Shown piece after piece: positions 3,088 through 39,301 of a stretch of 41,685 bases of DNA (its first letter is position 1; the number at the start of each line of letters is the position of its first letter). The translations under genes and the position numbers were made by a program. A model generated the notes under the pieces. It saw only the letters and a list, made by a program, of their open reading frames with translations, searched no databases and was not told where the DNA came from. Origin of the DNA: a virus (taxonomy: Duplodnaviria; Heunggongvirae; Uroviricota; Caudoviricetes); the IMG/VR virus record IMGVR_UViG_2541047729_000013; one strand, written 5' to 3'.

Positions 3088-3393
3088 ACTTTCTCCTGTT
3101 TACTATCTATAAGCCAGTCAATTATTGATGACTAAACCCGCATAGTAAACCATATATGAATCATTATTGTTCCATATCATATATCTCAATAAAAGTACTA
3201 ATGATTTTACAGAACGAGCCAGCAGAGTGGGGGCAGTTGTACAGGAACCATAGACTTAATTTTGTATTTAATAATGCTATGGTGTAATAAACCTGAACAT
3301 GTATTTAAAATACGTACTGATTCATGATAGAATTCAAAGATAACTTTTCACCAACTCCGTTTTTGATACCCGCAATATTTTGCGGGCTTTTTT

Positions 3394-6300
3394 TTAACGT
3401 TCTTCCAGAGACTGAACCCGCTCTTTTATCTTATCCATTTCTCTGCGCTGCCATGCTGCCTCGATATAGAATAAGAGATCAGGTCTGACCCCCCATCTAG
3501 ATCCTGCTGGCGTTATTTCAACGCGCTCAATGATGTCTTCTATTACCATCACTGGATTATCATCCTCATCAACAATGATGCTCCCGTCATTATCAGTCAG
3601 CGGCATTTCCCTTTGGCCAGTAATGACGTCATCATATACTGCGGGATAATCGTCATAGCAAAGAAAGGCATAGCGGCATGTTGTGCTTTCTTCTTCCATG
3701 AGTCCGTGAGAAATAAGAACATCACGAAGTTGCTGCGCGATTACACCATGATGTATCCTCGCCCCTTCTTCCCCCTTTATAGCGACAGCGTTCAGCCATT
3801 TATAAGCGATATACCTGACGTCACCCCAGGCATCCAGCAATGCTTCGTCAGGAGAGACCGGCTCTGTCTTTAATGTTCCGTCACTGGTAACCACAGGATT
3901 GGAGCCAAGATAAACTGTCGAGAACCTGTTTCCCGGACCACCAAGAGCATTTACATTATCAAGATAAGGTTTAACATCTCCGTTCTCAAAAAGATGTTCG
4001 AGTGCGTTATATACCGCGCGACGTGGAGTACTGCTTCCGGAACCATGCAACGTTATCATTGCACCATCTGCTGAAGACGTTGTTTCACCGCCGCTAACGA
4101 TTAATCTCTGAGCGGTAACATCATCAGACGGTACTTTCTTCGCAATAATGGCGTAATTACCCTCAAGTTTGACTTCCGCGCGAACTTGTCCTGATGTACC
4201 TGCATGGACAGTCAGTGACTGGACGGCAACATCATCTGTGAAATCAACGGGTACAGGAACCGTCCTCACGCCTGACGTCGACATAAAAGTAGGAAGCGTT
4301 CTGTTAGGAGTGGCTCCGTAGACAAAATCCCTTGAAACAAATTCTTCCTGTTTAATTTTCACCCTGAAACAATACAAATCAGCCGGGTGACCATCGTGAA
4401 AATAAGGATATTTTCTGTTGTTATCCCCTATGCTCCATGGGTTTAGAAAGTCTTCCCCACCGAAAATGTAGTACAGCCAGTTGTCTTTGATACAAACTGA
4501 ACCAACACCAACCGCAGAGTTAACTATTCCGCCCTGATAAATCTGATCAGTAACATTAACCCACTCTACATTATCCAGACTCCACTCATTGACGTTAACT
4601 CTGGTCATAAATGTTCTTGGATAATTTCCTGCATAACGGTTATCAGGTTCTCCTCCTTCCCACTCACCAAATGCGCGCTCACTGCCAAAAATAATCAGCT
4701 CATCGCCAACTTTGGCAAAAGGAAGGTTTGAGTGATGAACATTATTTGGGAAGCGAAGAGAATTCCATGATGTACCTAAATCAGAGCTTCTGTGCAATGA
4801 ACTACCGGGTTGAGTACTTAATGTCCCCCTGGTCGTCAGATACAGAATGCCATCATAATATTTTACACATGGCTCAGATGCATTCGCCTCATATTCTGCA
4901 GGTATGCGTCTGCGAACAAAGCTACCAGGAGAACCGAAAGCATCAGAGAAATAGAGTATCCCAAGCTCGCGTGGACCAATATCACCATTATGGTAGCCAA
5001 CAGCAAAACTGTTATCGCTAATCGTCGCAAAACTGTGAATCTCAGTAACAGGAGTGCTTCCGTCAACAAAAGAAGGAATAGTTCCAAGACTGGTTTTTCT
5101 CCATGGTGACGAGTGAAATGATGTACCAAAACTCCAGTATCTACCCTCGTTATTCTGATCCACATCCTGGGTATTTTGCGTCGTAACTGTAAAAGTATTT
5201 TTATCAATAACAGTAGTCACCGTCATATTCCCGGTAACACCTGTAACACCAGAGTTTGAGAAGTTGACAAAATCACCAGCAAATAATCCGTGATCAGTAA
5301 TGCGAATATAAGCGACTTGCTGATTTGCTGCTTTCGTTATACCACCATAAACGCGAAGGCTGCGACTCATTGGGCGATCCCACAACTCTGCAACCTGCAG
5401 TTTATTTCCGCTCACGGTCCGCGTCTCAATTACAGCAAAAAGGCGATTTCTGACAACCCCCATACTCATGCAGTGATAGTTAACTGTGGGATAGTTTTCA
5501 TGTAAATCTGTAAGCCATTCCGGCGTTGTCCAGGTCTTCCCGTCATCTCCTGAGCGAACCCATGCAACATGGAGGTTATTTACACCATGGCGGTCTCCAG
5601 CCATAAAAGGCGCATAGATGACATTGTCATATACAAACGTTTTATCCTGCGTCCAGGCGTTGTACCACGGTGTATCTGTAATTTTAAATAACTCTCCCTG
5701 GATAAAATCTTCAGAAGCATAAAAAAGAGGCTGGCCCGGTATTCTCTCAAATAAAAAACGAGCATTTTTAAATCGACTGACATCCGGAAGAGTTGATACT
5801 TTAAAAGTAAGCCCTAATCCGTCAATTTTATAACCTGGAGATGAGGCTTCAAGGCACGCGCTTATTGCAGTGGAATCGTCATTTATACCATCACCAACAG
5901 CTCCAAAATCTTTGGGGCTAATAGCATCACGCATTTTATCCTGGAACGTTCGGTACACAGCCCCAGAACCATACTGAATAAACCAACCAAAACCACCAAC
6001 AACCCCGGAGATTGCAGCATCGACATAATTACGCATTGAGCGATTATTTACAGCGTCCTGCTCAAATGATGGATCTGCAAGGTTAGAAATTTTGTTTTGC
6101 TTTGCATCGTAATATTTTGCAAGCAAAGATGGTTTCATCAATGCACGTCTGAACCACCCAAAACATTGCTGGATCAGCATCGTCAGGTAGTCAAAGGCAT
6201 CTTCATGCACTTCGGGGAAAAATTTTCCCTGATTGCGAAGGTCTGTCTCCTGCACTACATCAAGCACACGATCTATCGTAATTCGCCATCCAGTAGCAAG

Positions 6301-6513
6301 CGGAGACGGAAGAACCACAGAACCGCCACTATAAGTGCCCGCCCCAGTTACCGTATAACCGGTATCCAGAACCAATTCTGTTACGTTTCCGTTCAGGTCA
6401 GACACCTGAACAACCAGGTCTGATTTTCTGAAAACTCGAAAAGTATACGGAAACGATGTCGTAACGCCGTTACCGGTGTATTCGTTGTGGTCAACTTCGG
6501 TTGAGACCGTCAT
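3394..6513 (-). CDS. Tailspike / tail fibre with sialidase-like beta-propeller and C-terminal intramolecular chaperone domain
   Basis: 1039 aa; N-terminus MTVSTEVDHNEYTGNGVTTSFPYTF typical of enterobacterial phage fibre adaptor domains; two Asp-box motifs (SGDDGKTW, SSDLGTSW); C-terminal segment ending ...REMDKIKERVQSLEER resembles the autoproteolytic chaperone of endosialidase-type tailspikes; RBS GGAGAT upstream. Confidence 0.8.
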   Translation of the reverse strand: MTVSTEVDHNEYTGNGVTTSFPYTFRVFRKSDLVVQVSDLNGNVTELVLDTGYTVTGAGTYSGGSVVLPSPLATGWRITIDRVLDVVQETDLRNQGKFFPEVHEDAFDYLTMLIQQCFGWFRRALMKPSLLAKYYDAKQNKISNLADPSFEQDAVNNRSMRNYVDAAISGVVGGFGWFIQYGSGAVYRTFQDKMRDAISPKDFGAVGDGINDDSTAISACLEASSPGYKIDGLGLTFKVSTLPDVSRFKNARFLFERIPGQPLFYASEDFIQGELFKITDTPWYNAWTQDKTFVYDNVIYAPFMAGDRHGVNNLHVAWVRSGDDGKTWTTPEWLTDLHENYPTVNYHCMSMGVVRNRLFAVIETRTVSGNKLQVAELWDRPMSRSLRVYGGITKAANQQVAYIRITDHGLFAGDFVNFSNSGVTGVTGNMTVTTVIDKNTFTVTTQNTQDVDQNNEGRYWSFGTSFHSSPWRKTSLGTIPSFVDGSTPVTEIHSFATISDNSFAVGYHNGDIGPRELGILYFSDAFGSPGSFVRRRIPAEYEANASEPCVKYYDGILYLTTRGTLSTQPGSSLHRSSDLGTSWNSLRFPNNVHHSNLPFAKVGDELIIFGSERAFGEWEGGEPDNRYAGNYPRTFMTRVNVNEWSLDNVEWVNVTDQIYQGGIVNSAVGVGSVCIKDNWLYYIFGGEDFLNPWSIGDNNRKYPYFHDGHPADLYCFRVKIKQEEFVSRDFVYGATPNRTLPTFMSTSGVRTVPVPVDFTDDVAVQSLTVHAGTSGQVRAEVKLEGNYAIIAKKVPSDDVTAQRLIVSGGETTSSADGAMITLHGSGSSTPRRAVYNALEHLFENGDVKPYLDNVNALGGPGNRFSTVYLGSNPVVTSDGTLKTEPVSPDEALLDAWGDVRYIAYKWLNAVAIKGEEGARIHHGVIAQQLRDVLISHGLMEEESTTCRYAFLCYDDYPAVYDDVITGQREMPLTDNDGSIIVDEDDNPVMVIEDIIERVEITPAGSRWGVRPDLLFYIEAAWQRREMDKIKERVQSLEER

Positions 6514-6669
6514 GTTAAATCTCCAGATAGTCGCAGCACCCGTTGCGCCGCATATCTGGTTATTCTATTACCTGGAAAACCACATATGGATAGAAAGGCT
6601 GTAAATACGAATAGATATTACCTTTCAGGTAATTTGCAAAACGTGCTGGATAGCAAACAAATTATTTGC

Positions 6670-6689
6670 TACTGTATAAATATACAGTT
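6670..6689 (+). promoter_or_regulatory. LexA (SOS) box overlapping a -10-like element
   Basis: TACTGTATAAATATACAGTT matches CTGT-N8-ACAG with AT-rich spacer, a near-consensus LexA operator, about 20 nt upstream of the RBS GGAGAA of the 6709 gene. Confidence 0.7.
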
Positions 6690-6708
6690 ATTGCATGGAG
6701 AAGATAAG

Positions 6709-6966
6709 ATGCAGCAGTATCACTATCCACTGGAAGACGGATTTACCGAAAGGATTCACACGCCGGGAGGCGTCAGGTCACTGGTGGAGGGATCGCACTT
6801 GATGAAATTACTCCGGGATCTCGATAAGGATGGATTTAATGTCGATGGCCCACTTGCCGAACTGACTGCACTGATTAACTACGTCACCAGCTCACAGATG
6901 TCTATGCAGGATCTGCAAACACATCTCGACTATTGTGCCGAACAATTACGAAAACAAACCCGGTAA
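6709..6966 (+). CDS. SOS-regulated small protein, paralogous to the C-terminal domain of the Bro-N protein at 8352-9047 (candidate antirepressor)
   Basis: 85 aa from internal ATG with RBS; about 45 percent identity by eye between IHTPGGVRSLVEGSHLMKLLRDLDKDGFNVDGPLAELT...QTH and Bro C-terminus IHSPSGVLGLTENSLLMNLLNQLQEDGHDVSGAAAELT...QTH; LexA box immediately upstream. Confidence 0.6.
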   Translation: MQQYHYPLEDGFTERIHTPGGVRSLVEGSHLMKLLRDLDKDGFNVDGPLAELTALINYVTSSQMSMQDLQTHLDYCAEQLRKQTR

Positions 6967-6990
6967 ATTTAAAGGCCGCAAGAGCGGCCA

Positions 6991-7497
6991 TTAACAGTCG
7001 TAAAATTCCGGGTCCCACAAACTTGCATCGCGCGGCATGGATTCTAAATTTTTCAGCCGCAAAATTCTGTCACACTCGACAAGAAGTTTTTGTTTTTGTT
7101 CGTCAATTTCTACTTTTTTGTGTGCTGGCTCATCCCAGTAATCCAGAAGAAACGCATGTCGCTCAGACGTTACAAGATAAATCACATACACATCACTGGT
7201 TGGTATTTTTTTATGCTTGTTGGTGGTCTTGTCTTTCTTCCCGGATGCCCAGTTTTTCCAGCATTGTTCCGTACCGCTCTCACCAAACTTGTCAGTATAG
7301 TTTCCGATGTTTACGTGAACGTGGCGTATGTGATATTCCAGCATCTCTTTCGGTGGATCCCGAAACAGAGTGTCCTTTCCGAAATCCTTATGATGACCGT
7401 AGCGCCAGTGATCTATGAACGCGTTTTTGATAGGTATTAGCTCAGGGTCCTTCCCAAAAATTCCAGGGTGAACCAACCCCTGGAATTTATTCAGCAT
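6991..7497 (-). CDS. YafO-like putative toxin (ribosome-dependent mRNA interferase family)
   Basis: Start set at internal ATG (MLNKFQ...), overlapping the upstream gene by about 11 nt; segments PGIFGKD, HIRHVHV and VYVIYLVTSERHAFLL resemble recalled YafO segments PDIFGRD, HIHLANEN and HLVYCQGAFDEQAWLL. Assignment is from memory and needs an HMM search. Confidence 0.4.
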   Translation of the reverse strand: MLNKFQGLVHPGIFGKDPELIPIKNAFIDHWRYGHHKDFGKDTLFRDPPKEMLEYHIRHVHVNIGNYTDKFGESGTEQCWKNWASGKKDKTTNKHKKIPTSDVYVIYLVTSERHAFLLDYWDEPAHKKVEIDEQKQKLLVECDRILRLKNLESMPRDASLWDPEFYDC

Positions 7498-7942
7498 CGT
7501 CGTAGAGCTCCTGAGCCATATCTTCGGCAGTGCGTGCAAACATCCTGCGCGAGATTGCATGAGATTTCTCGACGGACATCTTTGGGACCTCATGCATAAC
7601 ATTTTTGGGAGTTGTGTAATAGCCTATTACAATTTTCACACCTGACTTATGATTAATATCAGCATAATATACTTCTTGTTCAGACGTTTCACGACGAACA
7701 TAATCTGCCAGTTTTCCACATTTAAATTCCCCTCCCTGATGTTTTAAAATCTCCTCAACTGCACTATTTTCAGTGAAATACCGAATAAGAAATTTCTGTC
7801 CAGACTCTTCAGCATGAGGTATAACAGTATTATTGGAAGCCCGAACAATGGCCTTACTCAATATTTCATGGTCTTTATTTTTTTCTGATTTCCTCAAATG
7901 CTGCATTACTGTAGCTCTCTTCGTGTTCACGGGCACCCCCAA
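7487..7942 (-). CDS. Uncharacterised protein overlapping and upstream of the YafO-like gene (candidate antitoxin or partner)
   Basis: 139-151 aa depending on start (track TTG at 7942 or ATG near 7906); acidic C-terminus AQELYDDAE; no recognisable HTH. My reading of the printed sequence near 7858-7862 gave one extra nucleotide relative to the track frame; track coordinates are used. Confidence 0.45.
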   Translation of the reverse strand: MGVPVNTKRATVMQHLRKSEKNKDHEILSKAIVRASNNTVIPHAEESGQKFLIRYFTENSAVEEILKHQGGEFKCGKLADYVRRETSEQEVYYADINHKSGVKIVIGYYTTPKNVMHEVPKMSVEKSHAISRRMFARTAEDMAQELYDDAE

Positions 7943-8038
7943 CTACCTCTAGGGTAAACATTCTATCGAAAGTATACGCATACTGGCAAAAAAATAGGCA
8001 GGTATTTTCTGAAATGGGATCAATCAAACCACATAGGG

Positions 8039-8083
8039 TTGAAATAACGTGAGTTATGCATTTATTATTACCTTTGCGGTAAA
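8039..8083 (+). promoter_or_regulatory. Candidate promoter (TTGAAA-N17-TTATTA) with overlapping ATTACC-N5-GGTAAA operator
   Basis: -35/-10-like hexamers with 17-nt spacing; operator palindrome at 8067-8083 abuts the -10; CCACATAGGG box at 8029-8038 is shared with the modules at 6580 and 26358. Confidence 0.45.
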
Positions 8084-8108
8084 TTTACATCGCACTCCTC
8101 TTGTGCCA

Positions 8109-8195
8109 TAGTAATCGGGCATTGGAAAAATCCAGTGCCGGGATTGGCGTCCCGGATTACTAAAAGGCGCATTCACCGCGCAAGCGGTTTTTTTA
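8109..8195 (+). ncRNA. Candidate small structured RNA / leader riboregulator ending in an intrinsic terminator
   Basis: Closing stem TAGTAATC (8109-8116) / GATTACTA (8155-8162) encloses two hairpins (GGCATTGGA-AAAA-TCCAGTGCC and GGGA-TTGGCG-TCCC); followed by ACCGC-GCAA-GCGGT plus T7 run (8175-8195). No ORF; 150 nt upstream of the Bro-N start. Confidence 0.3.
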
Positions 8196-8351
8196 TGCGT
8201 ATAGCACGGCCACATTCGTATTATGGTGGGCTGTGTGGGGGCACCGAAAGGTGCGCCGGGTCCTTTTAGCCGGTTACGCCAACCCTGCACAGTTCACCAC
8301 CAACCGATTGGCGTCGGTAGTGGTGATTAACCAGACTAAAAGGTAACCACT

Positions 8352-9047
8352 ATGACAGCTACAAAAAGCACGTCCATTTTTTCTTTCGAATCCCAAGCCG
8401 ATATACGGGTAATCGTCATTAATGGTGAGCCATGGTTTATCGCTTCAGATGTTTGTCGGGCTATAGGCATAGCAAATCATCGAGATGCTGTTCGAAAACT
8501 TGATGATGATGAGAAGGGCGTCGCTTCAACCGACACCCCTGGCGGTGAGCAAGAATCGATCATCATCTCCGAGTCAGGCCTCTACACACTGATCCTCCGC
8601 TGCCGCGACGCAGTGACACCAGGCACTATCCCCTACCGCTTTCGTAAATGGGTTACAGGTGAGGTTCTTCCTCAGATCCGCCGCACCGGAAGTTACATTA
8701 AAAACTCGCTCCCGCAGGAAGAACGCATAAAGATGGTTGCCGACCAGGTAGCCAACGCCACAGCATCAGCAGTGATGCAGGCAATGAAGATAGAGAACAA
8801 AACCTACAGTGCCCCACTGAAGCCCGGCTACCGCAGCCTGATTCATTCGCCGTCTGGTGTTCTCGGCCTGACGGAGAACTCACTGCTGATGAATCTGCTG
8901 AACCAGTTACAGGAAGACGGGCACGACGTATCGGGCGCGGCGGCGGAGCTGACCACCATGTTCTGCTACATCGTCGGTGTGAGCAAGTGCCTGCGTGATA
9001 TCCAGACGCACGCGGAGTACATCAACGACAAGGCTGGGTTCTTCTGA
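8352..9047 (+). CDS. Bro-N domain antirepressor-like protein
   Basis: N-terminal hallmark IRVIVINGEPWFIASDVCRAIGIANHRDAVRKLDDDEKGV; C-terminal about 65 aa paralogous to the 6709-6966 protein; RBS AAGGT upstream. Confidence 0.75.
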   Translation: MTATKSTSIFSFESQADIRVIVINGEPWFIASDVCRAIGIANHRDAVRKLDDDEKGVASTDTPGGEQESIIISESGLYTLILRCRDAVTPGTIPYRFRKWVTGEVLPQIRRTGSYIKNSLPQEERIKMVADQVANATASAVMQAMKIENKTYSAPLKPGYRSLIHSPSGVLGLTENSLLMNLLNQLQEDGHDVSGAAAELTTMFCYIVGVSKCLRDIQTHAEYINDKAGFF

Positions 9048-9112
9048 CGGGCGGCGGCACATGGATGTGCCTTTAAAATAATCATTGGCGATGTGATGTA
9101 GATTCGCGTAAT

Positions 9113-9129
9113 ATTACCTTACGGGTAAG
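9113..9129 (+). promoter_or_regulatory. ATTACC-N5-GGTAAG operator-like palindrome upstream of the 9188 gene
   Basis: ATTACCTTACGGGTAAG, same family as the immunity-region sites; about 60 nt upstream of the ATG at 9188. Confidence 0.45.
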
Positions 9130-9187
9130 AAAGCGTTTTTAATCTTCCCTTCAAAACGCGTCCTGTAGCCAAACATGGGAGGACGAA

Positions 9188-9820
9188 ATGAAAACAAATA
9201 CAACAAGAAAAGCGATGCCATACATTATCCCAGAAGCAGATTTCGACAGAAAACTGAACATGTCTGAGAAGAACACTAGTCACACCGAAAGCTACTTAGC
9301 GAAAGGTGTGGTTGATTTCGTTCTTCCGGGATTCACAACACCTTATGGTTATCGCCTTGTAAAATCTTGTAATGGCGATCATTACAGAATGATTACTACC
9401 AGCGATACTCCAGAAACGGTGTATGCGGTTAAGTTAATCTTTCGGGAAGATATCGTCGAAGCTAAAAGAACATGTACGCAGATCATGGTATGGCGTACGC
9501 CTAATGTTATTCATGACCGTGCTGTTCATGGTTTGCCTCAGATTTTTTTTCAGTTCTTCCTAGAGCAATATGCGATCGTTGTATCTGATGAGCAACAAAC
9601 AATCGATGGGAGAAGATTCTGGGAAAGAATGATTTCTTGGGCTATAAACACCCCGGGATATAATGTATACGTTTCAGATGGCTCTGAAGAAGATAGACCT
9701 CTTAGCTTCATGACATCATGGGATGATTTCTATAGCCAGTGGGCTGATTTCTGTTGGGGCAGTGATAAAGATGTGCATACCCACAGACTACTGGTTATAA
9801 GCAAAGATAAACTGCATTAA
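9188..9820 (+). CDS. Hypothetical protein (210 aa), accessory/moron gene
   Basis: Strong RBS GGAGG; followed by a clean intrinsic terminator; AT-rich codon usage unlike the structural genes; no motif I can assign. Confidence 0.6.
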   Translation: MKTNTTRKAMPYIIPEADFDRKLNMSEKNTSHTESYLAKGVVDFVLPGFTTPYGYRLVKSCNGDHYRMITTSDTPETVYAVKLIFREDIVEAKRTCTQIMVWRTPNVIHDRAVHGLPQIFFQFFLEQYAIVVSDEQQTIDGRRFWERMISWAINTPGYNVYVSDGSEEDRPLSFMTSWDDFYSQWADFCWGSDKDVHTHRLLVISKDKLH

Positions 9821-18141: not shown

Positions 18142-20612
18142 CAGAATCCCCCAACAGTAAGGCGAGGAATAACGGCAAGAACAGACAGCGGCAACGGATC
18201 AAGCTGACGGATTTTTACACGTCCGTTTTTGCCCCAGTTACTGTCCAGTTTCACTTCTACTTTTCCGGTAGCATCATCAACAGGATCATCGTAGAACTCG
18301 AATTCACGCTGTGGATATTCGTACCATTTACCGCCGGGCGTAGTCGCCCAGATGCCGCGACTGGCATTCACAACCAGAGTAACGGAGGGGATCACCTGTT
18401 TTTTGTCCAGCAGCGTTTCCTGTCCGTTAATGTTGATATCCAGTGTTTCGAATTCAGCAGTTATTGGCAGGCCGATGTGCACTACAGCCCCCGGAGATTC
18501 CAGCGTGACGGCACCTCCGGAAACCACTTTCTGTGGTTCCACGTTCGCATCAGAGAGAATGTTTACGGTCTGGCCTTCAAGATGAGACAGGCCTCCAAAT
18601 GTCCGGCGCGCCATCTGCCAGTTCGTGGTGGCCACATTCCTGAGGGATGGCGGGACGTTCCTGTTAGCACGAACCACTACAGCGGTATTGCTGGTTACAG
18701 AAATAATGTCGCAACGTAATTCTTTTGACACTTCATCGCCAGTATCAGGATCAGTTCCGGTATAAGGGAACTGTAGTTGCGCGCCGACATCACTACTGGT
18801 GAAGTACGCACCACCAGAAACACTGATTGTATATTCCGCACGGTAATCCCATTCACCAGAACCACCAGTGATGGTCATCGTTCTGTCAGACGTATTTCTT
18901 CCATCATAGCTAAGGCCAGAATCAACAAAGAAAGCATCTTCATCGCTGGTAAATAAACGGCTGGACAGTCGCTCGATGTATCTCACTGTTTGCCCGTTAA
19001 CGGTTCGGTTAATGACGAAATACACCGCATCTTCATTGCCTTCGCTGATACTGCATGTGCTTTCATATTTTCCGGTACTGGACTGTGGTGCCCATGCAAA
19101 AACCTGTTGATCACGCAAATAGGTCATCACCAGTAATTTACCGTCATCACGAATGCAGAAGGCGCTGGAGTAAGGGACAATAGAGAAGCACCAGTCAACA
19201 ATGCTGTGCTTCTGAAAAAGATGATTGGCAAGGATAGTAAGGTCGTTCCCCTGATAGCCGTCAACATCGAATGAGTAGGCCAGATCACGGACAACACTGC
19301 CTTTCTCCTGGACGAACAGAGCAATATTCGCCACGGCAATTGGTGGGACATTGCTCGAACCATTTGATCCCTGAGAGCTGAATGCAAATGATGATGGAGT
19401 TAATACTTTGTTCTGGTCGCCGGTGATGACGTACTCACCTCCGGAAGTCAGTGCCACCAGCGAACCGACATCAATCAGGTGGCGGATCTCATTAACCTGA
19501 CGCCCGGCATAGGTGTAGATAATTCTGTCGTCATCCTGCGTAGGATTGCTTTTGCCAAAATCCTTATAATCCCCAGTACGGCTGGCCCAGATAGTCTGAG
19601 GGAACGCTGTCGATGCGGCGAAGTAAAGACGTTGTTGATAATAAACAACCGTGCCAGGATAACCGTTAACACTGTTCCAGGCATATTTAGCCCATTTATA
19701 GCTGGCATTATCCTCGCCAACGACCTGCGAAGGGATATAGGAAATCACCTCAGCAGTTGCAGTAGTGCCATTTACAGCAGTTATACGGGCAATGCCAAAA
19801 CCACTGTGCAGATACTCCCACTCAATGCCAGTATCATCATCACCGGATCCGCCCCAGCCATCCCATGATGTGCCTTCTGTATGCGAAGGGCGCAAAGTGC
19901 CTGTTTTGCCTGCTGTAACGGCGCGATAGTAGTTACTGTCTGCACGGCGAATATCGCCAATCGACGTACTCTTACTGGTTTCCCATACCGGCACAGAATC
20001 CACTGCAGGCTGTTCCAGATAGAACAATTTGCCTACCTGCTCCGCGCCAAAAATAGAGGCGCTTGCCGTTAACGTAATTGTCCCGGTGCTGGCGCTGGCA
20101 TAAACCGTCACTGACTCATCAATATTGATATCTTCAAATGGCCCGTTCTTCGTTACCACATCAACCAGTTGCCAGTTGTCATGCGCATAGCGGCGCAGCT
20201 CTTTCGGCGGGTATGCCGGGTGAACCAGCGTAAGCACGTCGGCGCTTTGCGTGAATTTAATTCGGAACAGATCGGCTTCAGTATATGGCGTGGCAATTTC
20301 ATAAATAACATTGCTGCTGTTCAGCACCAACGCACCATCTTTGATAACGCGCATGTACTGGTGTCCGAACTCCAGAGCATAAGTCTGAACCGTCGAGAAT
20401 TGGAACGGGATCAGGCGGCATTTCCGATTTGGGTATTTGGCGGCACCGACAAAACGCGTACCAGGTCGATTCTCAACGCCGCCATACTGCCGCACGATAA
20501 AGTTATCGCACTTGCGCAATGCTACCTGGTACTTCGCCATGTCAATACGCCCGTACAACGACGGTCCAATCTCACCACCGGCAAAGCTGGGCTGGATCCA
20601 ACTGATAGCCAT
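18141..20612 (-). CDS. Tail tubular protein B-like (gp12-like position)
   Basis: 823 aa, immediately after the about 200-aa tubular-A-like gene; size and order as in T7-like tail modules. Confidence 0.5.
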   Translation of the reverse strand: MAISWIQPSFAGGEIGPSLYGRIDMAKYQVALRKCDNFIVRQYGGVENRPGTRFVGAAKYPNRKCRLIPFQFSTVQTYALEFGHQYMRVIKDGALVLNSSNVIYEIATPYTEADLFRIKFTQSADVLTLVHPAYPPKELRRYAHDNWQLVDVVTKNGPFEDINIDESVTVYASASTGTITLTASASIFGAEQVGKLFYLEQPAVDSVPVWETSKSTSIGDIRRADSNYYRAVTAGKTGTLRPSHTEGTSWDGWGGSGDDDTGIEWEYLHSGFGIARITAVNGTTATAEVISYIPSQVVGEDNASYKWAKYAWNSVNGYPGTVVYYQQRLYFAASTAFPQTIWASRTGDYKDFGKSNPTQDDDRIIYTYAGRQVNEIRHLIDVGSLVALTSGGEYVITGDQNKVLTPSSFAFSSQGSNGSSNVPPIAVANIALFVQEKGSVVRDLAYSFDVDGYQGNDLTILANHLFQKHSIVDWCFSIVPYSSAFCIRDDGKLLVMTYLRDQQVFAWAPQSSTGKYESTCSISEGNEDAVYFVINRTVNGQTVRYIERLSSRLFTSDEDAFFVDSGLSYDGRNTSDRTMTITGGSGEWDYRAEYTISVSGGAYFTSSDVGAQLQFPYTGTDPDTGDEVSKELRCDIISVTSNTAVVVRANRNVPPSLRNVATTNWQMARRTFGGLSHLEGQTVNILSDANVEPQKVVSGGAVTLESPGAVVHIGLPITAEFETLDININGQETLLDKKQVIPSVTLVVNASRGIWATTPGGKWYEYPQREFEFYDDPVDDATGKVEVKLDSNWGKNGRVKIRQLDPLPLSVLAVIPRLTVGGF

Positions 20613-26344: not shown

Positions 26345-26424
26345 TATTACCAATTTAACCACATATGATTTATTTATCGTAGATAGTTGACATTTAACGC
26401 ACAAATTATTACCTTTCAGGTAAC
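26345..26424 (+). promoter_or_regulatory. Repeated promoter/operator module (ATTACC-N7-CCACATATG ... TTGACA ... ATTACCTTTCAGGTAAC)
   Basis: Near-identical copy of the module at 6567-6633 (operator core ATTACCTTTCAGGTAA identical); faces the tRNA-Arg gene 320 nt downstream. Confidence 0.5.
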
Positions 26425-26745
26425 CAAAGAGTTCATTCCGGTTACTAACCTGACTGGCTTGTCGTTAAATTGAACAGGTGGAGTGAGCTTTTATTTTGAG
26501 CAGTACGGCGTATGGCACATGCGCCGATAGCGGTCTGGATACGTTTAAGGGGCACCCTCCCTTGCTCGGGCAAACGAACCAGGTAGCCGGAATGTGCAAG
26601 TCGAGCGGTTTTATTCCGCGCACGGGGATTCACCATCCCGGCGATTCGGTGTGACGCCTCGGAAGAGACGAGGGTACAACGATGAGAGCATTTATGGAGC
26701 CGCGACAAAGTGTGGCGCCTTAACAGGCTAAGTGCTCTCAGCGTT

Positions 26746-26822
26746 GTGGCATTAGCTCAGTTGGACAGAGCAACCGCCTTCTAAGCGGTTGGTCGCAGGT
26801 TCGAATCCTGCATGCCACGCCA
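26746..26822 (+). tRNA. tRNA-Arg (anticodon UCU), phage-encoded
   Basis: Hand-folded cloverleaf: acceptor GTGGCAT/ATGCCAC, D-stem GCTC/GAGC, anticodon stem ACCGC/GCGGT with loop CTTCTAA (anticodon TCT), T-arm GCAGG-TTCGAAT-CCTGC, discriminator G, encoded CCA. Confidence 0.85.
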
Positions 26823-27478: not shown

Positions 27479-28954
27479 TTAAGCATAGGGATCATAATCT
27501 GTAATGGCCTTGCCTTGCTGGTTCTGCTGCCCGGGAATTCGCAGACGCTTAGACACAGGGAACGCAAACGTCAGCAGTAGCGCATCGCCTTTACCCGGCG
27601 AACGCCCAAGCCGCTCCTTGATATCTTCCTTCGGTTCGATAACGATTTTACCGTCCACACGAACTTTGTACTCTGCCGCCGACAGGTCGTCTGCAGTTTC
27701 CTGGTCATCCAGCATGCCGCCGAGCCTCAGCCATGTCTTGCATGAGTTGAACATCTCCCCACGCTTGTTGAGCATCTGCGGGTCAGTAGACGCGCCACCG
27801 AACGGAACAAGTTGCCATGTACGTCCCCAGCCATCACCGATTGACTTCAAACCGGTTCCGTAACCGAAGTCGATGAACACCGCGTCAGCCTGATACTGGT
27901 CTTCAAAGTCAGCGATACGCTTCGCCATAATCAGATCGTCGGTAGTCTTGTTGCCAGTCCACAGCACCTTACTGTGTAGCCCCTGCCGCAGGTATATCAC
28001 CGCGTCATCAACGCCTGAATATGCCGGGTCAACACCGATTATCACCGGAGCATGTGCAACCTGCGCAGCGGTAACCACCCGCTTCATGGCCTCGTCTGTA
28101 AGGCCTGTTGGGATAAACTGGAGTTCTGACGCGTCAGGGAAGATCCCCCGCACGCGGACCTTCACGAAGTCGCTGTCTTCGCCGTAGTCGTCAACCCATT
28201 TCTGCAGCTGCTGCTTGTTTGTGCCTTCCACGGTGCGGCTGTCAATCTGCGCGCACTTCCAGCGGTGCTTGTACTTGCGGAAGCATTCGCGGAAGCGCCC
28301 GGTGTTACGCGTCGGGTTCCCAAACGCCACCCAGATAATTTCCGTGTCTTCGTCCGTAAGCGCACCCTCAGCAACTTCCCACACCAGATCCGCAATGTTC
28401 GACGCTTCATCGAATACCACGATGATGCGTTTGCGCTCGTTGTGTAGTCCGGCGAATGCCTCGGTGTTGTGCTCAGACCAGGGTATTGCGTCAGCCCGCC
28501 ACCGCTTGTCGTGCCCTAGGTCATTGCTGTACATCGCGGTAGCGGTACAGGTAAACCAGTCTTTCGTGATAGCAAGGTTCGACCACTTGATAATTTCCGG
28601 CCAGGTCTTCGTTCGTAGCTGGTTGTCGGTGTTGGCGGTCACCACGACCTTACAATCCTCGCAAGTGGACATGCCCCAGTTGATCAGCATTGAGATGAAT
28701 GCGGATTTACCAATACCGTGACCAGAAGCGCGTGCCAGCATAAGCGGCTGATAGCGCGTCTCTGGATTCTGCAGGTGATCACGTATCTCTCGGAACGCAT
28801 CAGCCTGCCACTGACGTGGGCCGGTGGCATGTGCCAGTTCAGTCCCCTCTTCCCCCCACGGGAACGCATAGAGGGCATAGCCAAGCGGATCGTGAGTGAA
28901 CCCTGCAATATCCTCGATTAACTGCTCTTCAGGAGATAACGCTGTATCTGTCAC
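27479..28954 (-). CDS. Terminase large subunit
   Basis: 491 aa; Walker A-like RASGHGIGKS near the N-terminus and acidic nuclease-region motifs; overlaps TerS stop. Confidence 0.85.
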   Translation of the reverse strand: MTDTALSPEEQLIEDIAGFTHDPLGYALYAFPWGEEGTELAHATGPRQWQADAFREIRDHLQNPETRYQPLMLARASGHGIGKSAFISMLINWGMSTCEDCKVVVTANTDNQLRTKTWPEIIKWSNLAITKDWFTCTATAMYSNDLGHDKRWRADAIPWSEHNTEAFAGLHNERKRIIVVFDEASNIADLVWEVAEGALTDEDTEIIWVAFGNPTRNTGRFRECFRKYKHRWKCAQIDSRTVEGTNKQQLQKWVDDYGEDSDFVKVRVRGIFPDASELQFIPTGLTDEAMKRVVTAAQVAHAPVIIGVDPAYSGVDDAVIYLRQGLHSKVLWTGNKTTDDLIMAKRIADFEDQYQADAVFIDFGYGTGLKSIGDGWGRTWQLVPFGGASTDPQMLNKRGEMFNSCKTWLRLGGMLDDQETADDLSAAEYKVRVDGKIVIEPKEDIKERLGRSPGKGDALLLTFAFPVSKRLRIPGQQNQQGKAITDYDPYA

Positions 28955-29625
28955 TGATTGCCATCCTGACGTTCTTTCAGTCTCTTCCTGGCTGCCGCTA
29001 TGCGATCAGCAATTGTCACATTCACATTAACATCCAGGCGTTCTTTGAATGCGTTGACGTCGACGTGCTTACCAATCAGTTCGAGGTTCTTCACCTTGTC
29101 AGGCCATTTAATTTTTTTGAGGATTGTCTCTATCGAATCCTCGTTCATGTTCATGATGGTCGATGACAGATCAAAGCCACTAAGCGTAGTGCGCCAGATT
29201 TTCGGCCACTCGCGGATTGGCTTAAGGCTCCCATCGTCGTTGAGGATGTCGATCACGTCCATCTGGTCGATCTCCACCAGGCGCATGAGAACGTAATCAG
29301 CACTGACGCGCATTCGTTTGTTGCGCTCCTCCATCAACTCGGCAATCCGTTTTTGAATGCGTTCATCGCGCATCATGACACTGGCTTTAACTGCCGCTGT
29401 ATTTGGGGAGAATCCTGCGTTAATCGCTGCCTGAGTCTGGTTTTCAGGCGTTTTGATGTATGACTGGCAATAAGCCTCCTGCATTGCTGTTAGTGGCTTA
29501 AATTGCGTTGATTTGCGTTTATAGGCTTTAGGTTCAGCAGGCATCATAACCACCGTGGTAATAGTTACCGTTGTGGTAATAGTACCATGCAAAATAAAGC
29601 CGCCATAGTTGGCGGCAGTATTCAA
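28951..29625 (-). CDS. Terminase small subunit
   Basis: Basic DNA-binding-like protein immediately upstream of TerL with 4-nt overlap; true start may be the internal Met pair near 29547. Confidence 0.65.
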   Translation of the reverse strand: MNTAANYGGFILHGTITTTVTITTVVMMPAEPKAYKRKSTQFKPLTAMQEAYCQSYIKTPENQTQAAINAGFSPNTAAVKASVMMRDERIQKRIAELMEERNKRMRVSADYVLMRLVEIDQMDVIDILNDDGSLKPIREWPKIWRTTLSGFDLSSTIMNMNEDSIETILKKIKWPDKVKNLELIGKHVDVNAFKERLDVNVNVTIADRIAAARKRLKERQDGNQ

Positions 29626-29665: not shown

Positions 29666-30007
29666 TCACACTATTAATTTCGTTTCATGCCAGCCTTTAG
29701 TCACCCAGCATTGCGAGTCACCATCACACGGGCATGAATTCACAGGAACTCTCTCGCCGCACTTACCGCAACGTTTTCTGCTGATCGATTTTATACGCCC
29801 GTGCACGCGTGCATCATCCTGGCGGATCAGTAACGCTATATACTCACCAAATTCGTAAGGCGCACGCCCGGGGCGACGCGTGGCACAGTTACGCTCCAGC
29901 ATTTCAATTTCCTGAGCATCAAGCACAATTTCCAGCTTACGCACACCAGATGCAGCTTGTCTGGCTCTCTGAGCGGCTTTGCGCTCTGCTGCTGATTTAG
30001 CCATCAA
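29666..30007 (-). CDS. Small basic protein with C-terminal Cys-rich zinc-ribbon-like motif (possible late-gene regulator)
   Basis: Arg/Lys-rich N-terminus; CGKCG...CPCDGDSQC near the C-terminus; last gene before the terminase operon. Confidence 0.45.
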   Translation of the reverse strand: MMAKSAAERKAAQRARQAASGVRKLEIVLDAQEIEMLERNCATRRPGRAPYEFGEYIALLIRQDDARVHGRIKSISRKRCGKCGERVPVNSCPCDGDSQCWVTKGWHETKLIV

Positions 30008-32304: not shown

Positions 32305-32383
32305 TTTACCTCTGAGGTAATTAAAAACCACATAAGACATGAAATCAATAGAGTTTATAATATTTTGTTACCTAACAGGTAAT
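32305..32383 (-). promoter_or_regulatory. Two operator-like palindromes flanking a candidate internal promoter
   Basis: TTTACCTCTGAGGTAAT (32305-32321) and GTTACCTAACAGGTAAT (32367-32383) between the P-like gene stop and the DUF1064-like start; TATAAT-like element between them. Confidence 0.4.
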
Positions 32384-34191: not shown

Positions 34192-34267
34192 TTTTTCCGC
34201 CCCTTTTTGTTATTGATATTGGCTATTTTGCACAATTGGAAAATTTGATCAACCAGATTTGGTTTTT

Positions 34268-34317
34268 TATTACCTTTGAGGTACGAATAGATATGAAAAG
34301 ACCGCCGGGTGGCGGTC
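34268..34317 (-). promoter_or_regulatory. tR1-like hairpin plus operator half-site downstream of the cro-like gene
   Basis: Minus-strand hairpin AGACCGCC-ACCC-GGCGGTCT followed by TTTTCA (34291-34317); adjacent ATTACCTTTGAGGTAC (34268-34284). Confidence 0.4.
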
Positions 34318-34339: not shown

Positions 34340-34570
34340 TCATGAGTAGAAGAAGTATGCCAGTTCTGCTTTTGAGCGCAGCCATTGTCTTGTTTTACAG
34401 GCTTTAAAAAGCCCATTCATCAATACCTTACCTGGCATTTTGCGCTTACCTGTTAAGTGAGTCTGGATATAGTGACTCGTCGTTCCGGCTTCCTGTGCGA
34501 AGGCTTCACGCTCATCCGGAGTAAGTGCAAGCCAGTGCTTTTTGAAATCGAAATGTCCGTTATCGCTCAT
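34340..34570 (-). CDS. Cro-like HTH regulator
   Basis: 76 aa, divergent from the repressor gene across the operator region; HTH-like segment REAFAQEAGTTSHYIQTHLTGKR. Confidence 0.55.
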   Translation of the reverse strand: MSDNGHFDFKKHWLALTPDEREAFAQEAGTTSHYIQTHLTGKRKMPGKVLMNGLFKACKTRQWLRSKAELAYFFYS

Positions 34571-34610
34571 AGCTATTGCCTGATATTTATTTCAGATAAT
34601 AAATATTCAC

Positions 34611-34670
34611 CCATAAGGTAACAAAAATCAAGGATAGTTACCTATGGGGTGCATTTACCTGTTGGGTAAT
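34611..34670. promoter_or_regulatory. Immunity-region operator cluster (OR-like), three ATTACC-N5-GGTAAT-type sites
   Basis: TTCACCCATAAGGTAAC, TTACCTATGGGGTGC and TTTACCTGTTGGGTAAT within the 154-bp repressor/cro-like intergenic region. Confidence 0.6.
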
Positions 34671-35365: not shown

Positions 35366-35444
35366 ATTACCTAACGGGTAATTTTTTTAACTCATATCTA
35401 TTGACATCAAACCAGATACGCATAATCATTACCTCAACGGTAAC
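35366..35444 (+). promoter_or_regulatory. OL-like operators and early-left promoter
   Basis: ATTACCTAACGGGTAAT (35366-35382), TTGACA at 35401-35406, ATTACCTCAACGGTAAC (35428-35444) and a further GGTAA half-site, upstream of the first early-left ORF. Confidence 0.55.
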
Positions 35445-39188: not shown

Positions 39189-39301
39189 GTGTGCTGCTAA
39201 GGCACTGGAGCAAATGGTCAGGATGGTACTTATTCCTGGCCTCTGTTTCAGCATGGCTTTATCTGCTGGCATTAATTTTCAGAGAGGGTTGGATTAAGTG
39301 A
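39185..39301 (+). CDS. Small hydrophobic peptide (38 aa), translationally coupled
   Basis: ATG overlaps the AlpA-like stop (ATGA) and its TGA overlaps the next GTG start; MSVLLRHWSKWSGWYLFLASVSAWLYLLALIFREGWIK has one predicted transmembrane helix; below track cutoff. Confidence 0.35.
   Translation: MSVLLRHWSKWSGWYLFLASVSAWLYLLALIFREGWIK

Follow-up and report, generated by a model that had tools for sequence, protein, structure and literature searches.

Gene context of the repeated blocks

The window, that is, the whole stretch of 41,685 nucleotides that was analysed, is an epsilon15/phiV10-like (Uetakevirus) prophage. In the interval between its tailspike and ant genes, the 17-bp palindrome ATTACC-N5-GGTAAT and the sequence AACCACATA are both present at 6567-6633 (locus A), and both recur at 26346-26424, upstream of gp3 (locus B), and at 8027-8083, ahead of an isrK/C4/Bro-N unit (locus C), far above chance. 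A sequence-only reading had reported the repeated block at these three loci, and all the strings quoted in it are present, with one start moved by 1 nt (26346 in place of 26345). All promoters named below are predicted from sequence alone. Locus A contains the following features:

6562-6572, minus strand: GGTAATAGAAT, an operator-like half-site (the first ATTACC of the earlier reading) fused to the putative tailspike -10 TAGAAT, 6567->6562
6567-6572: ATTACC of locus A
6578-6591, minus strand: box A AACCACATATGGAT, a 14-bp imperfect palindrome (late strand ATCCA-TATG-TGGTT) that contains CCACATATG
6590->6585, late strand: predicted -35 of the tailspike promoter, TCCATA, inside box A
6617-6633, unstranded: putative Rep operator A, ATTACCTTTCAGGTAAT, a perfect palindrome in the interval between the divergent tailspike and ant genes
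6647-6688, plus strand: putative Pant, TGGATA-17-TACTGT, with TACTGT at 6670-6675 and the LexA box TACTGTATAAATATACAGT (6670-6688) lying across it
6709-6966, plus strand: ant, SPC32H-type antirepressor of 85 aa (PDB 5D50_E, E = 4e-47)

Residues 2-84 of the window Ant align with 5D50_E, and the match to the 86-aa SPC32H Ant runs from end to end. The SOS small protein, which had been counted as accessory cargo, is thus the Ant antirepressor of the lysis–lysogeny switch and has its own LexA-boxed predicted promoter, located about 35 bp downstream of operator A. The LexA box at 6670-6688 is the sole such site in the window, and its presence at the ant promoter is conserved in epsilon15, SPC32H, Tyrion and a Klebsiella phage. 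The long open reading frame 6586-6966 had rightly been called artefactual, as it is a 5' extension opened by the ATG at 6586 within CCACATATG, the real ant gene starting at 6709. The conserved promoter-like hexamers inside module A are on the other strand and point toward the tailspike gene. Both operator A and GGTAATAGAAT are invariant in 5 lineages, and the orthologue of operator A in epsilon15 (19895-19911) is annotated 'protein_bind: repressor'. An RNA hairpin formed by box A was rejected, as conservation of its pairing partner AACCAGATATG (inverted, 6553-6561) does not extend to epsilon15, Tyrion or the Klebsiella phage.

Locus B is composed as follows:

26346-26351, minus strand: ATTACC half-site
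26357-26370, minus strand: box B AACCACATATGATT, late strand AATCA-TATG-TGGTT
26387-26392 (-35), plus strand: promoter-like TTGACA-17-TACCTT, conserved by position, sigma70-like, reading toward tRNA-Arg
26408-26424, unstranded: putative Rep operator B ATTACCTTTCAGGTAAC, which contains the -10 TACCTT (26410-26415)
26746-26822, plus strand: tRNA-Arg(TCT), downstream of the plus-strand promoter-like site of module B

Box B and the half-site belong to a block, TGGTTAAATTGGTAATAATTTAA, which lies upstream of gp3 and is invariant in 9 of 9 aligned sequences; 80 related prophages show collinearity over about 670 nt ahead of gp3. The epsilon15 orthologue of operator B (2931-2947) is again annotated as a repressor site, and SPC32H carries a tRNA-Arg at the same locus as the window. 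A permissive Rfam search of the leader (26425-26745) gave no known RNA family.

At locus C, the elements are these:

8027-8040, minus strand: box C AACCACATAGGGTT, its last two bases being the first two of the -35 TTGAAA
8039-8068: promoter-like TTGAAA-18-TATTAT, toward isrK/C4/Bro-N
8067-8083, unstranded: putative Rep operator C ATTACCTTTGCGGTAAA, between two promoter-like sites
8084-8112: promoter-like TTTACA-17-CATAGT, directly after operator C
8119-9047, plus strand: immI-like unit under putative module C control, with isrK, the C4 antisense RNA and the Bro-N antirepressor gene

In this unit, isrK (8119-8194) was recognized by Rfam with 74.5 bits and the C4 antisense RNA (8219-8304) with 77.7 bits (gathering threshold 45), the latter upstream of the Bro-N antirepressor gene (8352-9047, Pfam). 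Operator C overlaps the -10/+1 of the predicted promoter TTGAAA-18-TATTAT and precedes the predicted TTTACA-17-CATAGT. Published overexpression data on ORF4 of phage ZX5 bear on the immI-like unit (PMC9782041).

The view that the three loci drive the cargo named earlier thus holds in part: predicted promoters with the operator over -10/+1 exist at B and C, whereas at A the hexamers face the tailspike gene and ant has its own promoter. Besides the conserved hexamers directed at the cargo of B and C, there are others directed at late genes (tailspike, gp3).

The palindrome as the probable operator of a repressor regulon

Beyond these three loci, the palindrome is found in 11 copies at no more than one mismatch in the window. 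At up to two mismatches, 15 copies were observed against 1.10 expected under dinucleotide-preserving shuffles, and 0 of 100 shuffles reached 15, which rules out the chance recurrence of short AT-rich words. Copies overlooked by the sequence-only reading start at 9113, 29546, 29564, 32305, 32367, 34654, 35366 and 35428, with weaker ones at 7942 and 34269. The remaining loci, together with the repressor gene, are:

7942-7989, minus strand: promoter-like TTGCCA-18-TAGAAT with a 2-mismatch operator (7942-7958), ahead of ORFs 7942->6991
9113-9129, unstranded: putative Rep operator D, upstream of ORF 9188-9820, abutting a -10-like hexamer TAATAT (by eye)
29546-29562 and 29564-29580, unstranded: operator pair E, immediately ahead of the terS coding region
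32305-32383, minus strand: putative early promoter F, with O_up 32367-32383, -35 TTGATT, TCA, box 32326-32339, -10 TTTAAT 32325->32320 and O_down 32305-32321
34251-34264 and 34269-34285, minus strand: perfect box AACCAGATTTGGTT and a 2-mismatch operator, 4 nt apart, downstream of the cro-like gene
34606-34670, unstranded: PR/PRM-like control region in the cro-like/rep interval, with an operator (34654-34670) and two weaker operator-like sites; no box
34725-35309, plus strand: rep, SPC32H Rep homologue of 194 aa (PDB 5D50_A, E = 4e-42; Pfam)
35366-35444, plus strand: putative PL-like promoter H, with O_up 35366-35382, -35 TTGACA 35401-35406, TCA, box 35410-35423, -10 AATCAT 35424-35429 and O_down 35428-35444

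Promoters F and H share the same geometry, the two operators of F being 62 bp apart. The hexamers of F were read by eye in the window, and a promoter scan matched their equivalents in epsilon15, SPC32H and the Klebsiella phage. ORFs 7942->6991 form a window-specific two-gene insert with its own promoter-like site and operator.

The palindromes are almost all intergenic and stand at the heads of transcription units. In the GenBank record of epsilon15, an identical consensus is annotated 'protein_bind: repressor' at positions orthologous to the window operators, namely upstream of terS, upstream of gp3, in the ant/tail fibre interval, beside rep and after the replication genes. A full-text literature search for the operator consensus returned nothing relevant. 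From the annotation and the literature on the repressor we infer that the prophage master repressor, Rep, uses the palindrome as its operator. Repressors of this type consist of an N-terminal DNA-binding domain followed by middle and C-terminal domains for oligomerisation, and the alignment of the window Rep with 5D50_A covers residues 1-190; the protein is 100% identical to the repressors of phiV10 and ZX5 and only about 42% identical to epsilon15/SPC32H Rep, with the operator unchanged. The operator is dispersed over about 11-13 sites, on or beside nearly every promoter-like site of the phage. Overexpression of the ZX5 repressor lowered the transcription of endolysin and holin by 99.99% and 99.97%, respectively (PMC9782041).

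The operator and the 14-bp box are found in orthologous places in phages of E. coli, Salmonella, Enterobacter and Klebsiella, and also in prophages from other genera of the Enterobacterales. This arrangement is kept whatever the cargo, in phiV10, ZX5, TL-2011b, epsilon15, SPC32H, Tyrion, BUCT711 and prophages of seven more species. An anchor search with one genome per species yielded eight more Enterobacterales prophages, with operator and box unchanged in all. In multi-genus alignments, the operator, the box and GGTAATAGAAT or TGGTTAAATTGGTAATAATTTAA are invariant and the spacers vary. The promoter-like hexamers keep their positions in every lineage.

These observations bear directly on the proposal that a portable promoter–operator cassette was copied and travelled along with morons acquired independently (the SOS protein, the tRNA-Arg and the structured RNA/Bro-N locus), which we regard as very improbable. 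Operators A and B indeed differ at a single one of their 17 positions and have the same central pentamer, ATTACC stands 5 nt before the box in both, and cargo-ward promoter-like sites exist at B and C; moreover, the insert 7942->6991 indicates that newly arrived genes can join the same control. The pentamer identity, however, is restricted to the E. coli lineage, and all that the blocks have in common is the 17-bp operator and the 14-bp box, plus one extra half-site in A and B. On alignment of the three loci, only box and operator were significant; the spacers (25, 37 and 26 nt in A, B and C, unrelated in sequence) and the 40-nt flanks were no better than shuffles (p 0.10-0.99). Modular acquisition is also contradicted by the relatives, in which the modules stay at fixed genomic positions in every lineage examined, irrespective of the genes beside them: epsilon15 has module B without an annotated tRNA, and SPC32H has both. 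The same elements flank core early promoters, and Ant is a core switch protein.

Since the directly observed similarity of A, B and C is limited to the cores, a pattern that the sequence-only reading had itself set against its cassette, a fixed repressor regulon is the better description. The blocks are regulatory, as had been supposed, in that they carry the operator at the heads of transcription units, but they are not one duplicated promoter module. It is quite probable that each consists of two protein-binding sites, the Rep operator and the box, of a fixed regulon and is not a mobile promoter. The recurrence of both elements at nearly every promoter, and in the same places in relatives, makes this ordinary and largely known phage wiring.

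According to published studies, Rep is a tetramer that binds palindromic sites via pairs of DNA-binding domains (DBDs) formed in trans (PMC9638917), with its two DBD-bearing ends about 100 A apart and a tetramerisation domain structurally similar to the tetrameric looping repressor Rco of pLS20 (PMC9986798). Published work also describes the SPC32H Rep tetramer as being disassembled by LexA-controlled Ant. A paper from 2023 states that the mode of repression by Rep 'has not been extensively characterized'.

In a lysogen, Rep on its operator would directly occlude the promoters whose -10 or +1 is overlapped (the tRNA-Arg promoter of B, the isrK/C4/Bro-N promoter of C, and those at D and ORF 7942). 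The promoters of late genes (tailspike at A, gp3 at B) would likewise be held down by Rep, most likely with the two DBD pairs of one tetramer bridging operator and box. Upon DNA damage, LexA would leave Pant, Ant would break the Rep tetramer, and all units would fire.

The 14-bp box beside the operators

The second element of the blocks was recognized from CCACATATG, which is part of a 14-bp imperfect palindrome, AACCA-N4-TGGTT, found beside operators at at least seven loci. The sequence AACCACATA occurs in exactly four copies in the window, all adjoining operators, the fourth being at 32326, beside operator 32305. The motif CCACATAKG was observed three times against 0.69 expected, and of the seven sites that match the dyad at 9/10 or better, four are no more than 60 bp away from an operator, in a zone that makes up 3.2% of the window. 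Measured from centre to centre, box and operator are 40.5-43.5 or 52.5 bp apart (about 4 or 5 helical turns); elsewhere a gap of 4 nt separates the two. The box always lies on the late-strand side of the operator, at fixed offsets, in phiV10, ZX5, TL-2011b, epsilon15, SPC32H, Tyrion and Klebsiella BUCT711, and the arrangement is found in at least 120 viral contigs, in five positional classes. No description of the box was found in the epsilon15 annotation or the literature searched, and one may stand in Kim & Ryu 2013, Kim et al. 2016 or Kropinski et al. 2007.

Box and operator differ both in their spacing (ACC-N6-GGT versus ACC-N5-GGT) and in their flanks (GGTT[T/A] versus GGTAA). The GGTT of the box shows no drift toward GGTAA, which speaks for a DNA-binding specificity of its own rather than for a degenerate Rep site. 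As to the binding protein, for which candidates can be named from sequence only, Rep is proposed tentatively, at rather less than an even chance; another phage regulator is possible, if somewhat doubtful, and a promoter or host-factor element would be unlikely. A comparison of covariation gave no variation to match to a binder, the operator and box being constant throughout.

Several candidates were set aside. The box is not a sigma70 -10 element, as the position of the conserved final T is always G and the distance to the candidate -10 varies by class (0, 7 or 10 nt). The gp49-like regulator (29666-30007) was rejected as a binder because its close homologues occur in Chlobot and ZF40, which are without operators and have the box at background level. 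In a comparison by eye with the DnaA, CRP, IHF and HipB consensuses, box B alone came within a single mismatch of a DnaA box, and the conserved core did not match. A search of PDB sequences gave no match for the Cro-like and gp49-like proteins.

One tentative reading, which we hold with less than even confidence, is that the Uetakevirus lysis–lysogeny circuit has in the box a second operator that had not been described before, helically phased with the Rep operator, lying within core promoter elements of early and late units, and read by the Rep tetramer or by another regulator restricted to the genus. Co-evolution would then have to involve about a dozen operators and at least seven boxes, so that specificity would be frozen in every genus sampled despite the approximately 42% identity level to which Rep has diverged. 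With Rep as the reader, a second DNA-binding pair would provide short-range bridging and extend repression to promoters 40-50 bp from a strong site. With another regulator, early promoters would be flipped off and late promoters on.

A somewhat unlikely alternative assigns only the palindrome to Rep and the box to a post-induction regulator, either Cro-like (34340-34570, minus strand) or PerC-like (39298-39597), acting as a lytic-phase switch. Several features are consistent with it. The half-site GGTT[T/A] is consistently unlike the operator GGTAA, the 14-bp dyad fits a small HTH dimer, and the orientation of the strong half with respect to the late strand is the same at every locus. A box without an operator nearby lies upstream of the lysis cassette (3148-3161), and the putative late-strand promoters have poor -35 hexamers (3-4 matches of 6). 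The Cro-like and PerC-like proteins are well conserved (59-77% and 64-79% identity) and, like the box, genus-restricted. Rep is restricted in the same way: all three proteins co-occur with the box, and the distributions cannot tell the binders apart. Furthermore, the box-to-promoter geometry is not uniform, and no lineage has a box in the PR/PRM-like region, where a Cro-type protein would be expected.

Such a regulator would shut off the early promoters F and H, whose -35/-10 spacer is occupied by the box, and would switch on promoters in which the box stands in place of a weak -35 or next to it (tailspike at A, the lysis cassette in relatives, and C and 34251, where the box centre is near -41).

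The box also overlaps core promoter elements, namely the -35/-10 spacer at F and H and the putative tailspike -35 at A. Another idea, quite unlikely in our view, is that the box is no protein site in its own right and represents a conserved promoter element or host-factor site (an odd -35/spacer context or a bend), or partly a coding constraint. Such an idea draws on the -35 inside the box at A, on the IHF sites annotated beside the operators at A and B in the epsilon15 record, and on the C-type box of TL-2011b and Tyrion, which overlaps the last codons and stop of ant. The place of the box within the promoter nevertheless varies from class to class, and the box stays conserved at non-coding loci of all genera sampled and has a dyad symmetry that is perfect at 34251 and in the lysis module of Tyrion.

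Relation to known phage switches

With SPC32H and epsilon15 (Uetakevirus) the window shares Rep and Ant homologues, a LexA box ahead of ant and the palindrome at the same genome positions. Compared with them, the window has an extra immI-like isrK/C4/Bro-N unit and the inserted two-gene unit, each with its own operator. The system is already known, and the conserved 14-bp box may be the only new item.

The phage appears to be wired as a one-repressor regulon, with a logic similar to that of the C1 regulon of P1. In P1 and P7, the C1 repressor acts at many dispersed operators on separate units, operator specificity is fixed across relatives, and immI consists of the c4 antisense RNA, icd and ant. 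The window similarly has an antirepressor operon that would be gated by a C4 antisense RNA (Rfam match), and operator C, between two promoter-like sites, is reminiscent of P51a/P51b with Op51 in P1 and P7. P1 C1 has no relationship to Rep, and each of its operators is an asymmetric 17-mer; in contrast to P1, the window operator is truly palindromic and predicted to be tetramer-bound, and a second, LexA-controlled antirepressor, Ant, provides an SOS input.

The stoperators of gp71 in mycobacteriophage L5 are likewise many short repressor sites spread genome-wide, including within and between late-gene blocks. They are asymmetric and orientation-dependent and act on elongation within transcription units, whereas the sites of the window are palindromic and stand at promoters. 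Lambda CI represses cooperatively, with looping, at OL/OR and is inactivated by RecA-stimulated self-cleavage. The window resembles it in having several operators per control region, an oligomeric repressor and helically phased spacing (62 bp pairs; 40-52 bp from operator to box). Unlike CI, Rep is inactivated by an antirepressor, and its bridging or looping is a proposal.

For annotation, the blocks should be labelled Rep operators of an SPC32H/epsilon15-type switch, the SOS gene named ant, and ORF 6586-6966 trimmed to 6709-6966. The repeated blocks give no evidence for recent moron acquisition. With early, late and accessory units each singly under one repressor, inserted genes on either strand would be kept silent or co-induced, as exemplified by the tRNA-Arg unit, the immI-like unit and the insert 7942->6991. 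Such unit-by-unit wiring may also explain why operator specificity has not drifted within the group. If the box is a true second site, it adds to the description of Rep repression and offers a testable handle on late-gene control in a phage group that serves in the detection and biocontrol of Salmonella and E. coli.

Probable Rep operators of an epsilon15-like phage

The window represents an epsilon15/phiV10-like podovirus of the genus Uetakevirus, and its region 5500-9500 is 95-99% identical to phiV10, ZX5, EC.W1-9 and TL-2011b. Late genes occupy the minus strand (the late strand), and the plus strand carries rep, the early-left operon and several inserts. The product of rep, the master repressor Rep, is a homologue of the SPC32H repressor (PDB 5D50_A, E = 4e-42) and is 100% identical to the repressors of phiV10 and ZX5. 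The SOS small protein, which the sequence-only reading had taken for accessory cargo, is homologous to Ant, the SPC32H antirepressor (5D50_E, E = 4e-47), and is a core protein of the switch.

Gene context in the window
28951-29625, minus strand: terS, followed by terL, portal and virion genes
3394-6513, minus strand: endosialidase tailspike, at the end of this late series with the lysis cassette
34725-35309, plus strand: rep
6709-6966: ant
6670-6688: LexA box preceding ant, the only one in the window
8119-8194: isrK, in the immI-like unit headed by locus C
8219-8304: C4 antisense RNA, same unit
8352-9047: Bro-N protein, same unit
26746-26822: tRNA-Arg(TCT)

The 17-bp palindrome ATTACC-N5-GGTAAT occurs at 15 sites with at most two mismatches, against 1.10 expected in the window, and none of 100 dinucleotide-preserving shuffles gave 15; at 11 sites, there is at most one mismatch. 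In the curated epsilon15 record, all seven "protein_bind: repressor / lysogeny" features read ATTACC-N5-GGTAAT. The window operators follow the epsilon15 layout, with extra sites at 8067, 7942 and 9113.

Repressor sites annotated in epsilon15
One site: upstream of terS
2931-2947: upstream of gp3 (equivalent of locus B)
19895-19911: between gp19 (Ant) and the tail fibre gene (equivalent of locus A)
Three sites: beside the repressor gene
One site: after the replication genes

SPC32H Rep is a tetramer that occupies palindromic sites with its DNA-binding domains pairing in trans; Ant, also a tetramer, breaks it down to dimers (PMC9638917). The repressor consists of an N-terminal DNA-binding domain, a middle dimerisation domain and a C-terminal tetramerisation domain, with its two DNA-binding ends about 100 A apart (PMC9986798). 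In ZX5, overexpression of the repressor lowered endolysin transcription by 99.99%, and lytic growth was promoted by the overexpressed counterpart of the window's Bro-N protein (PMC9782041). From the epsilon15 annotation, we infer that Rep binds exactly ATTACC-N5-GGTAAT, and the palindrome is probably the Rep operator of a dispersed regulon. The window is a member of the SPC32H/epsilon15 Rep-Ant switch, showing all of its testable defining features. Since the dispersed operator is already annotated in epsilon15, this core finding is known biology in a new genome, and the interest lies mainly in a conserved 14-bp box beside the operators.

At the terS operator pair, the mechanically called ORF (TTG at 29625; region 29542-29625, minus strand) is probably overlong. 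Comparison with the ZX5 annotation indicates that terS probably starts at the ATG directly after the operators (29546-29580), which would place them over the ribosome-binding region. Just upstream, on the late strand, is a terminator-like hairpin.

Fixed positions of the repeated blocks

The sequence-only reading described three copies of a promoter block, here loci A, B and C, and all of its quoted strings are found in the window.

Repeated strings at the three loci
Locus A: ATTACC 6567-6572; AACCACATATGGAT 6578-6591; ATTACCTTTCAGGTAAT 6617-6633
Locus B: ATTACC 26346-26351; AACCACATATGATT 26357-26370; ATTACCTTTCAGGTAAC 26408-26424
Locus C: AACCACATAGGGTT 8027-8040; ATTACCTTTGCGGTAAA 8067-8083

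These copies are real but incomplete as a set, as the window contains more than a dozen sites. CCACATAKG is confined to loci A, B and C, and AACCACATA has a fourth exact copy at 32326, beside operator 32305. As proposed, an ATG within CCACATATG, at 6586, opens ORF 6586-6966.

The blocks had been interpreted as a portable cassette marking the acquisition of morons. When their parts were aligned separately and compared with 2000 shuffles, box and operator were significant, with no shuffle equalling the observed score. The 40-nt upstream flanks, the spacers (25, 37 and 26 nt in A, B and C) and the 40-nt downstream flanks were not, with a fraction of 0.10-0.99 of shuffles scoring at least as high. 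Beyond box and operator, the only shared item is an ATTACC half-site, which A and B have at a distance of 5 nt from the box. The likeness is thus limited to the cores, which is the outcome that the reading itself had named as refuting a duplicated cassette.

Comparison with relatives leads the same way. The region upstream of gp3 is collinear over about 670 nt in 80 related prophages, with operator and box invariant and substitutions in between. A search anchored on the block beside box B, excluding the full box and the operator, retrieved eight Enterobacterales prophages (two Citrobacter species and one each of Klebsiella, Erwinia, Superficieibacter, Pseudocitrobacter, Scandinavium and Pseudescherichia), all eight with the same operator, box and TGTCAAT. 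In multi-genus alignments, the invariant columns are TTACC..GGTAAT, GTCAA, CTACG, AAATAA and C.TAT.TGGTTAAATTGGTAATAATTTAA at locus B, and the LexA box, TCCAG, the operator, AT.CATAT..GGTT and GGTAATAGAAT at locus A. In epsilon15, module B (operator plus box) is present without an annotated tRNA; in SPC32H, a tRNA-Arg occupies the same locus. This conservation, with or without the tRNA, marks the modules as old, fixed parts of the genome. Chance-level flanks and spacers together with fixed positions refute the portable cassette; what stands of the interpretation is that the blocks are regulatory, contain an operator and, at B and C, have predicted promoters reading toward the cargo.

Between operators A and B, 16 of 17 positions agree, the central pentamer TTTCA among them. 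This near-identity is shared by phiV10-like E. coli phages and absent from epsilon15, Tyrion and the Klebsiella phage; it could be due to chance or to gene conversion inside the E. coli lineage.

A conserved 14-bp dyad

The CCACATATG element forms one half of another conserved dyad. Along the late strand, with all genomes so oriented, it reads TATGTGGTT, and its fuller form is the imperfect 14-bp palindrome AACCA-N4-TGGTT. The TGGTT half is essentially invariant, and the other half usually matches at four or five of five positions (ATCCA in A, AATCA in B, AACCC in C). Perfect palindromes are found at 34251-34264 (AACCAGATTTGGTT) and in the Tyrion lysis module (AACCATATATGGTT).

At a threshold of 9/10 or better, the dyad has seven sites in the window, four of them no more than 60 bp from an operator; such operator-near zones make up 3.2% of the sequence. 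In phiV10, ZX5, TL-2011b, epsilon15, SPC32H, Tyrion and Klebsiella phage BUCT711, the box without exception lies to the late-strand side of the operator, at fixed offsets: 30-33 nt, 42 nt or, in a "near" class, 9 nt. Centre-to-centre distances are 40.5-43.5, 52.5 or 19.5 bp, about 4, 5 and 2 helical turns. More than 120 loci came from a pattern scan of viral contigs, in five positional classes (ahead of gp3; ahead of the tailspike; ahead of the nin-like genes; ahead of the lysis cassette; at the immI junction). No description of the box was found in the sequence records and literature covered; the box may be new or may already appear in the primary papers.

Rep is 42-45% identical between lineages (epsilon15, SPC32H, Klebsiella BUCT711 and prophages of other genera), with operator consensus, box and positions unchanged, and the sampled phages and prophages included no heteroimmune variant. 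This pattern fits a dispersed regulon that freezes repressor specificity. By analogy with P1 and P7, one might speculate that heteroimmunity arises in antirepressor modules. In its logic, the Rep regulon is similar to the P1/P7 C1 regulon and its immI operon; L5 stoperators and looping repressors are looser parallels.

Two further box-like sites were observed. A good box, ATTCATATATGGTT, lies at 3148-3161 (late strand) in intergenic region 3088-3393, upstream of the lysis cassette, with no Rep operator nearby. An inverted near-copy at 6553-6561 (plus strand; late strand AACCAGATATG) follows downstream of box A after 16 nt, so that the pair reads CATATGTGGTT-N16-AACCAGATATG; it is probably incidental, as other lineages do not conserve it.

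Predicted promoters and a candidate mechanism

Sigma70-like hexamer pairs were scored on both strands in five lineages, and only position-conserved pairs were kept; every promoter named here is a prediction.

Predicted promoters
A, late strand: T[T/C/A]CATA-17-TAGAAT toward the tailspike, -35 in the box (6590->6585, 6567->6562)
A, plus strand: TGGATA-17-TACTGT (Pant), overlapping the LexA box, some 35 bp away from the operator
B, plus strand: TTGACA-17-TACC[T/C]T, -10 in the operator, directed at the structured leader and at tRNA-Arg
B, late strand, weaker: ATGTCA-17-AATCAT toward gp3
C, plus strand: TTGAAA-18-TATTAT, which abuts the operator; TTTACA-17-CATAGT just past it
H (early promoter, 35366-35444), plus strand: TTGACA-17-AATCAT, PL-like
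F (early promoter, 32305-32383), late strand: TTGAAA/TTGATA-18-TAAATT in epsilon15, SPC32H and the Klebsiella phage

In the window, F reads TTGATT-17-TTTAAT by eye, a pair that did not come up in the scan. F and H are built alike (O_up, 18 nt, -35, TCA, 14-bp box, -10, O_down), with paired operators 62 bp apart. A module promoter directed toward the cargo, as earlier suggested, is thus predicted at B and C but not at A.

Late-strand transcription appears to be restarted by modules A and B past inserts on the opposite strand. In line with this, a module of operator plus box precedes the lysis cassette in epsilon15, SPC32H and Tyrion, where opposite-strand O-antigen genes stand between the cassette and the tail fibre gene. 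At the matching position, phiV10 carries an operator; in the window and ZX5, lysis genes directly follow the tailspike.

In a lysogen, Rep tetramers would sit on the dispersed operators. Where the operator overlaps -10 or +1 (B plus strand, C, operator 9113-9129, ORF 7942, O_down of F and H), Rep would act by simple occlusion. At A, probably B, and the lysis class of relatives, the operator would lie about 40-50 bp upstream of a late-strand promoter with its -35 in the box. The most economical model for these promoters is bridging, in which one DNA-binding-domain pair of a tetramer would hold the palindrome and the other the box, on the same helix face. DNA damage would inactivate LexA, Ant would be made, the Rep tetramer would be broken and all units would be released together.

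That Rep itself binds the box is a tentative proposal. The consistent differences in half-site (GGTT[T/A] versus GGTAA in the operator) and spacing (ACC-N6-GGT versus ACC-N5-GGT) argue for a separate specificity. The main rival is a second, genus-specific regulator, Cro-like or PerC-like, acting as an early-off/late-on switch; relatives conserve the Cro-like protein at 59-77% and the PerC-like protein at 64-79%. The box is absent from the PR/PRM-like region in every lineage examined, which speaks against a Cro-type binder. Covariation gives no lead to the binder, since neither operator nor box varies in the relatives found. A gp49-like regulator was rejected, as Chlobot and ZF40 have close homologues, no operators and background-level box.

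Operator 8067-8083 is bracketed by two promoter-like sites (8039-8112, plus strand) ahead of isrK/C4, an arrangement conserved in Tyrion. The immI operon of P1 has tandem promoters P51a/P51b with Op51, of which this arrangement is reminiscent. Two late-strand ORFs without known function (7487-7942, phrog_9503; 6991-7602, phrog_1651) form an insert separating ant from the immI-like unit. This window-specific insert (7942->6991) has TTGCCA-18-TAGAAT and then a two-mismatch operator at 7942-7958 (region 6991-7989, minus strand). TL-2011b and Tyrion lack it, and in them the final codons of ant, stop codon included, are overlapped by box C.

The tailspike (3394-6513, minus strand) is a full endosialidase with N-terminal extension, beta-propeller, beta-barrel, tailspike domain and Peptidase_S74 chaperone, which implies specificity for a polysialic-acid (K1-type) capsule. 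Its N-terminal 200 or so residues are the conserved Uetakevirus head-binding part, and in the contig scan, tailspike lengths vary downstream of the same module. Between module B and tRNA-Arg, a non-coding leader of about 320 nt (26425-26745, plus strand) is conserved among related prophages. It matches no Rfam family and is moderately structured as RNA (MFE -120.9 kcal/mol, z = -3.0), and the epsilon15 record annotates an RNase III processing site at its equivalent.
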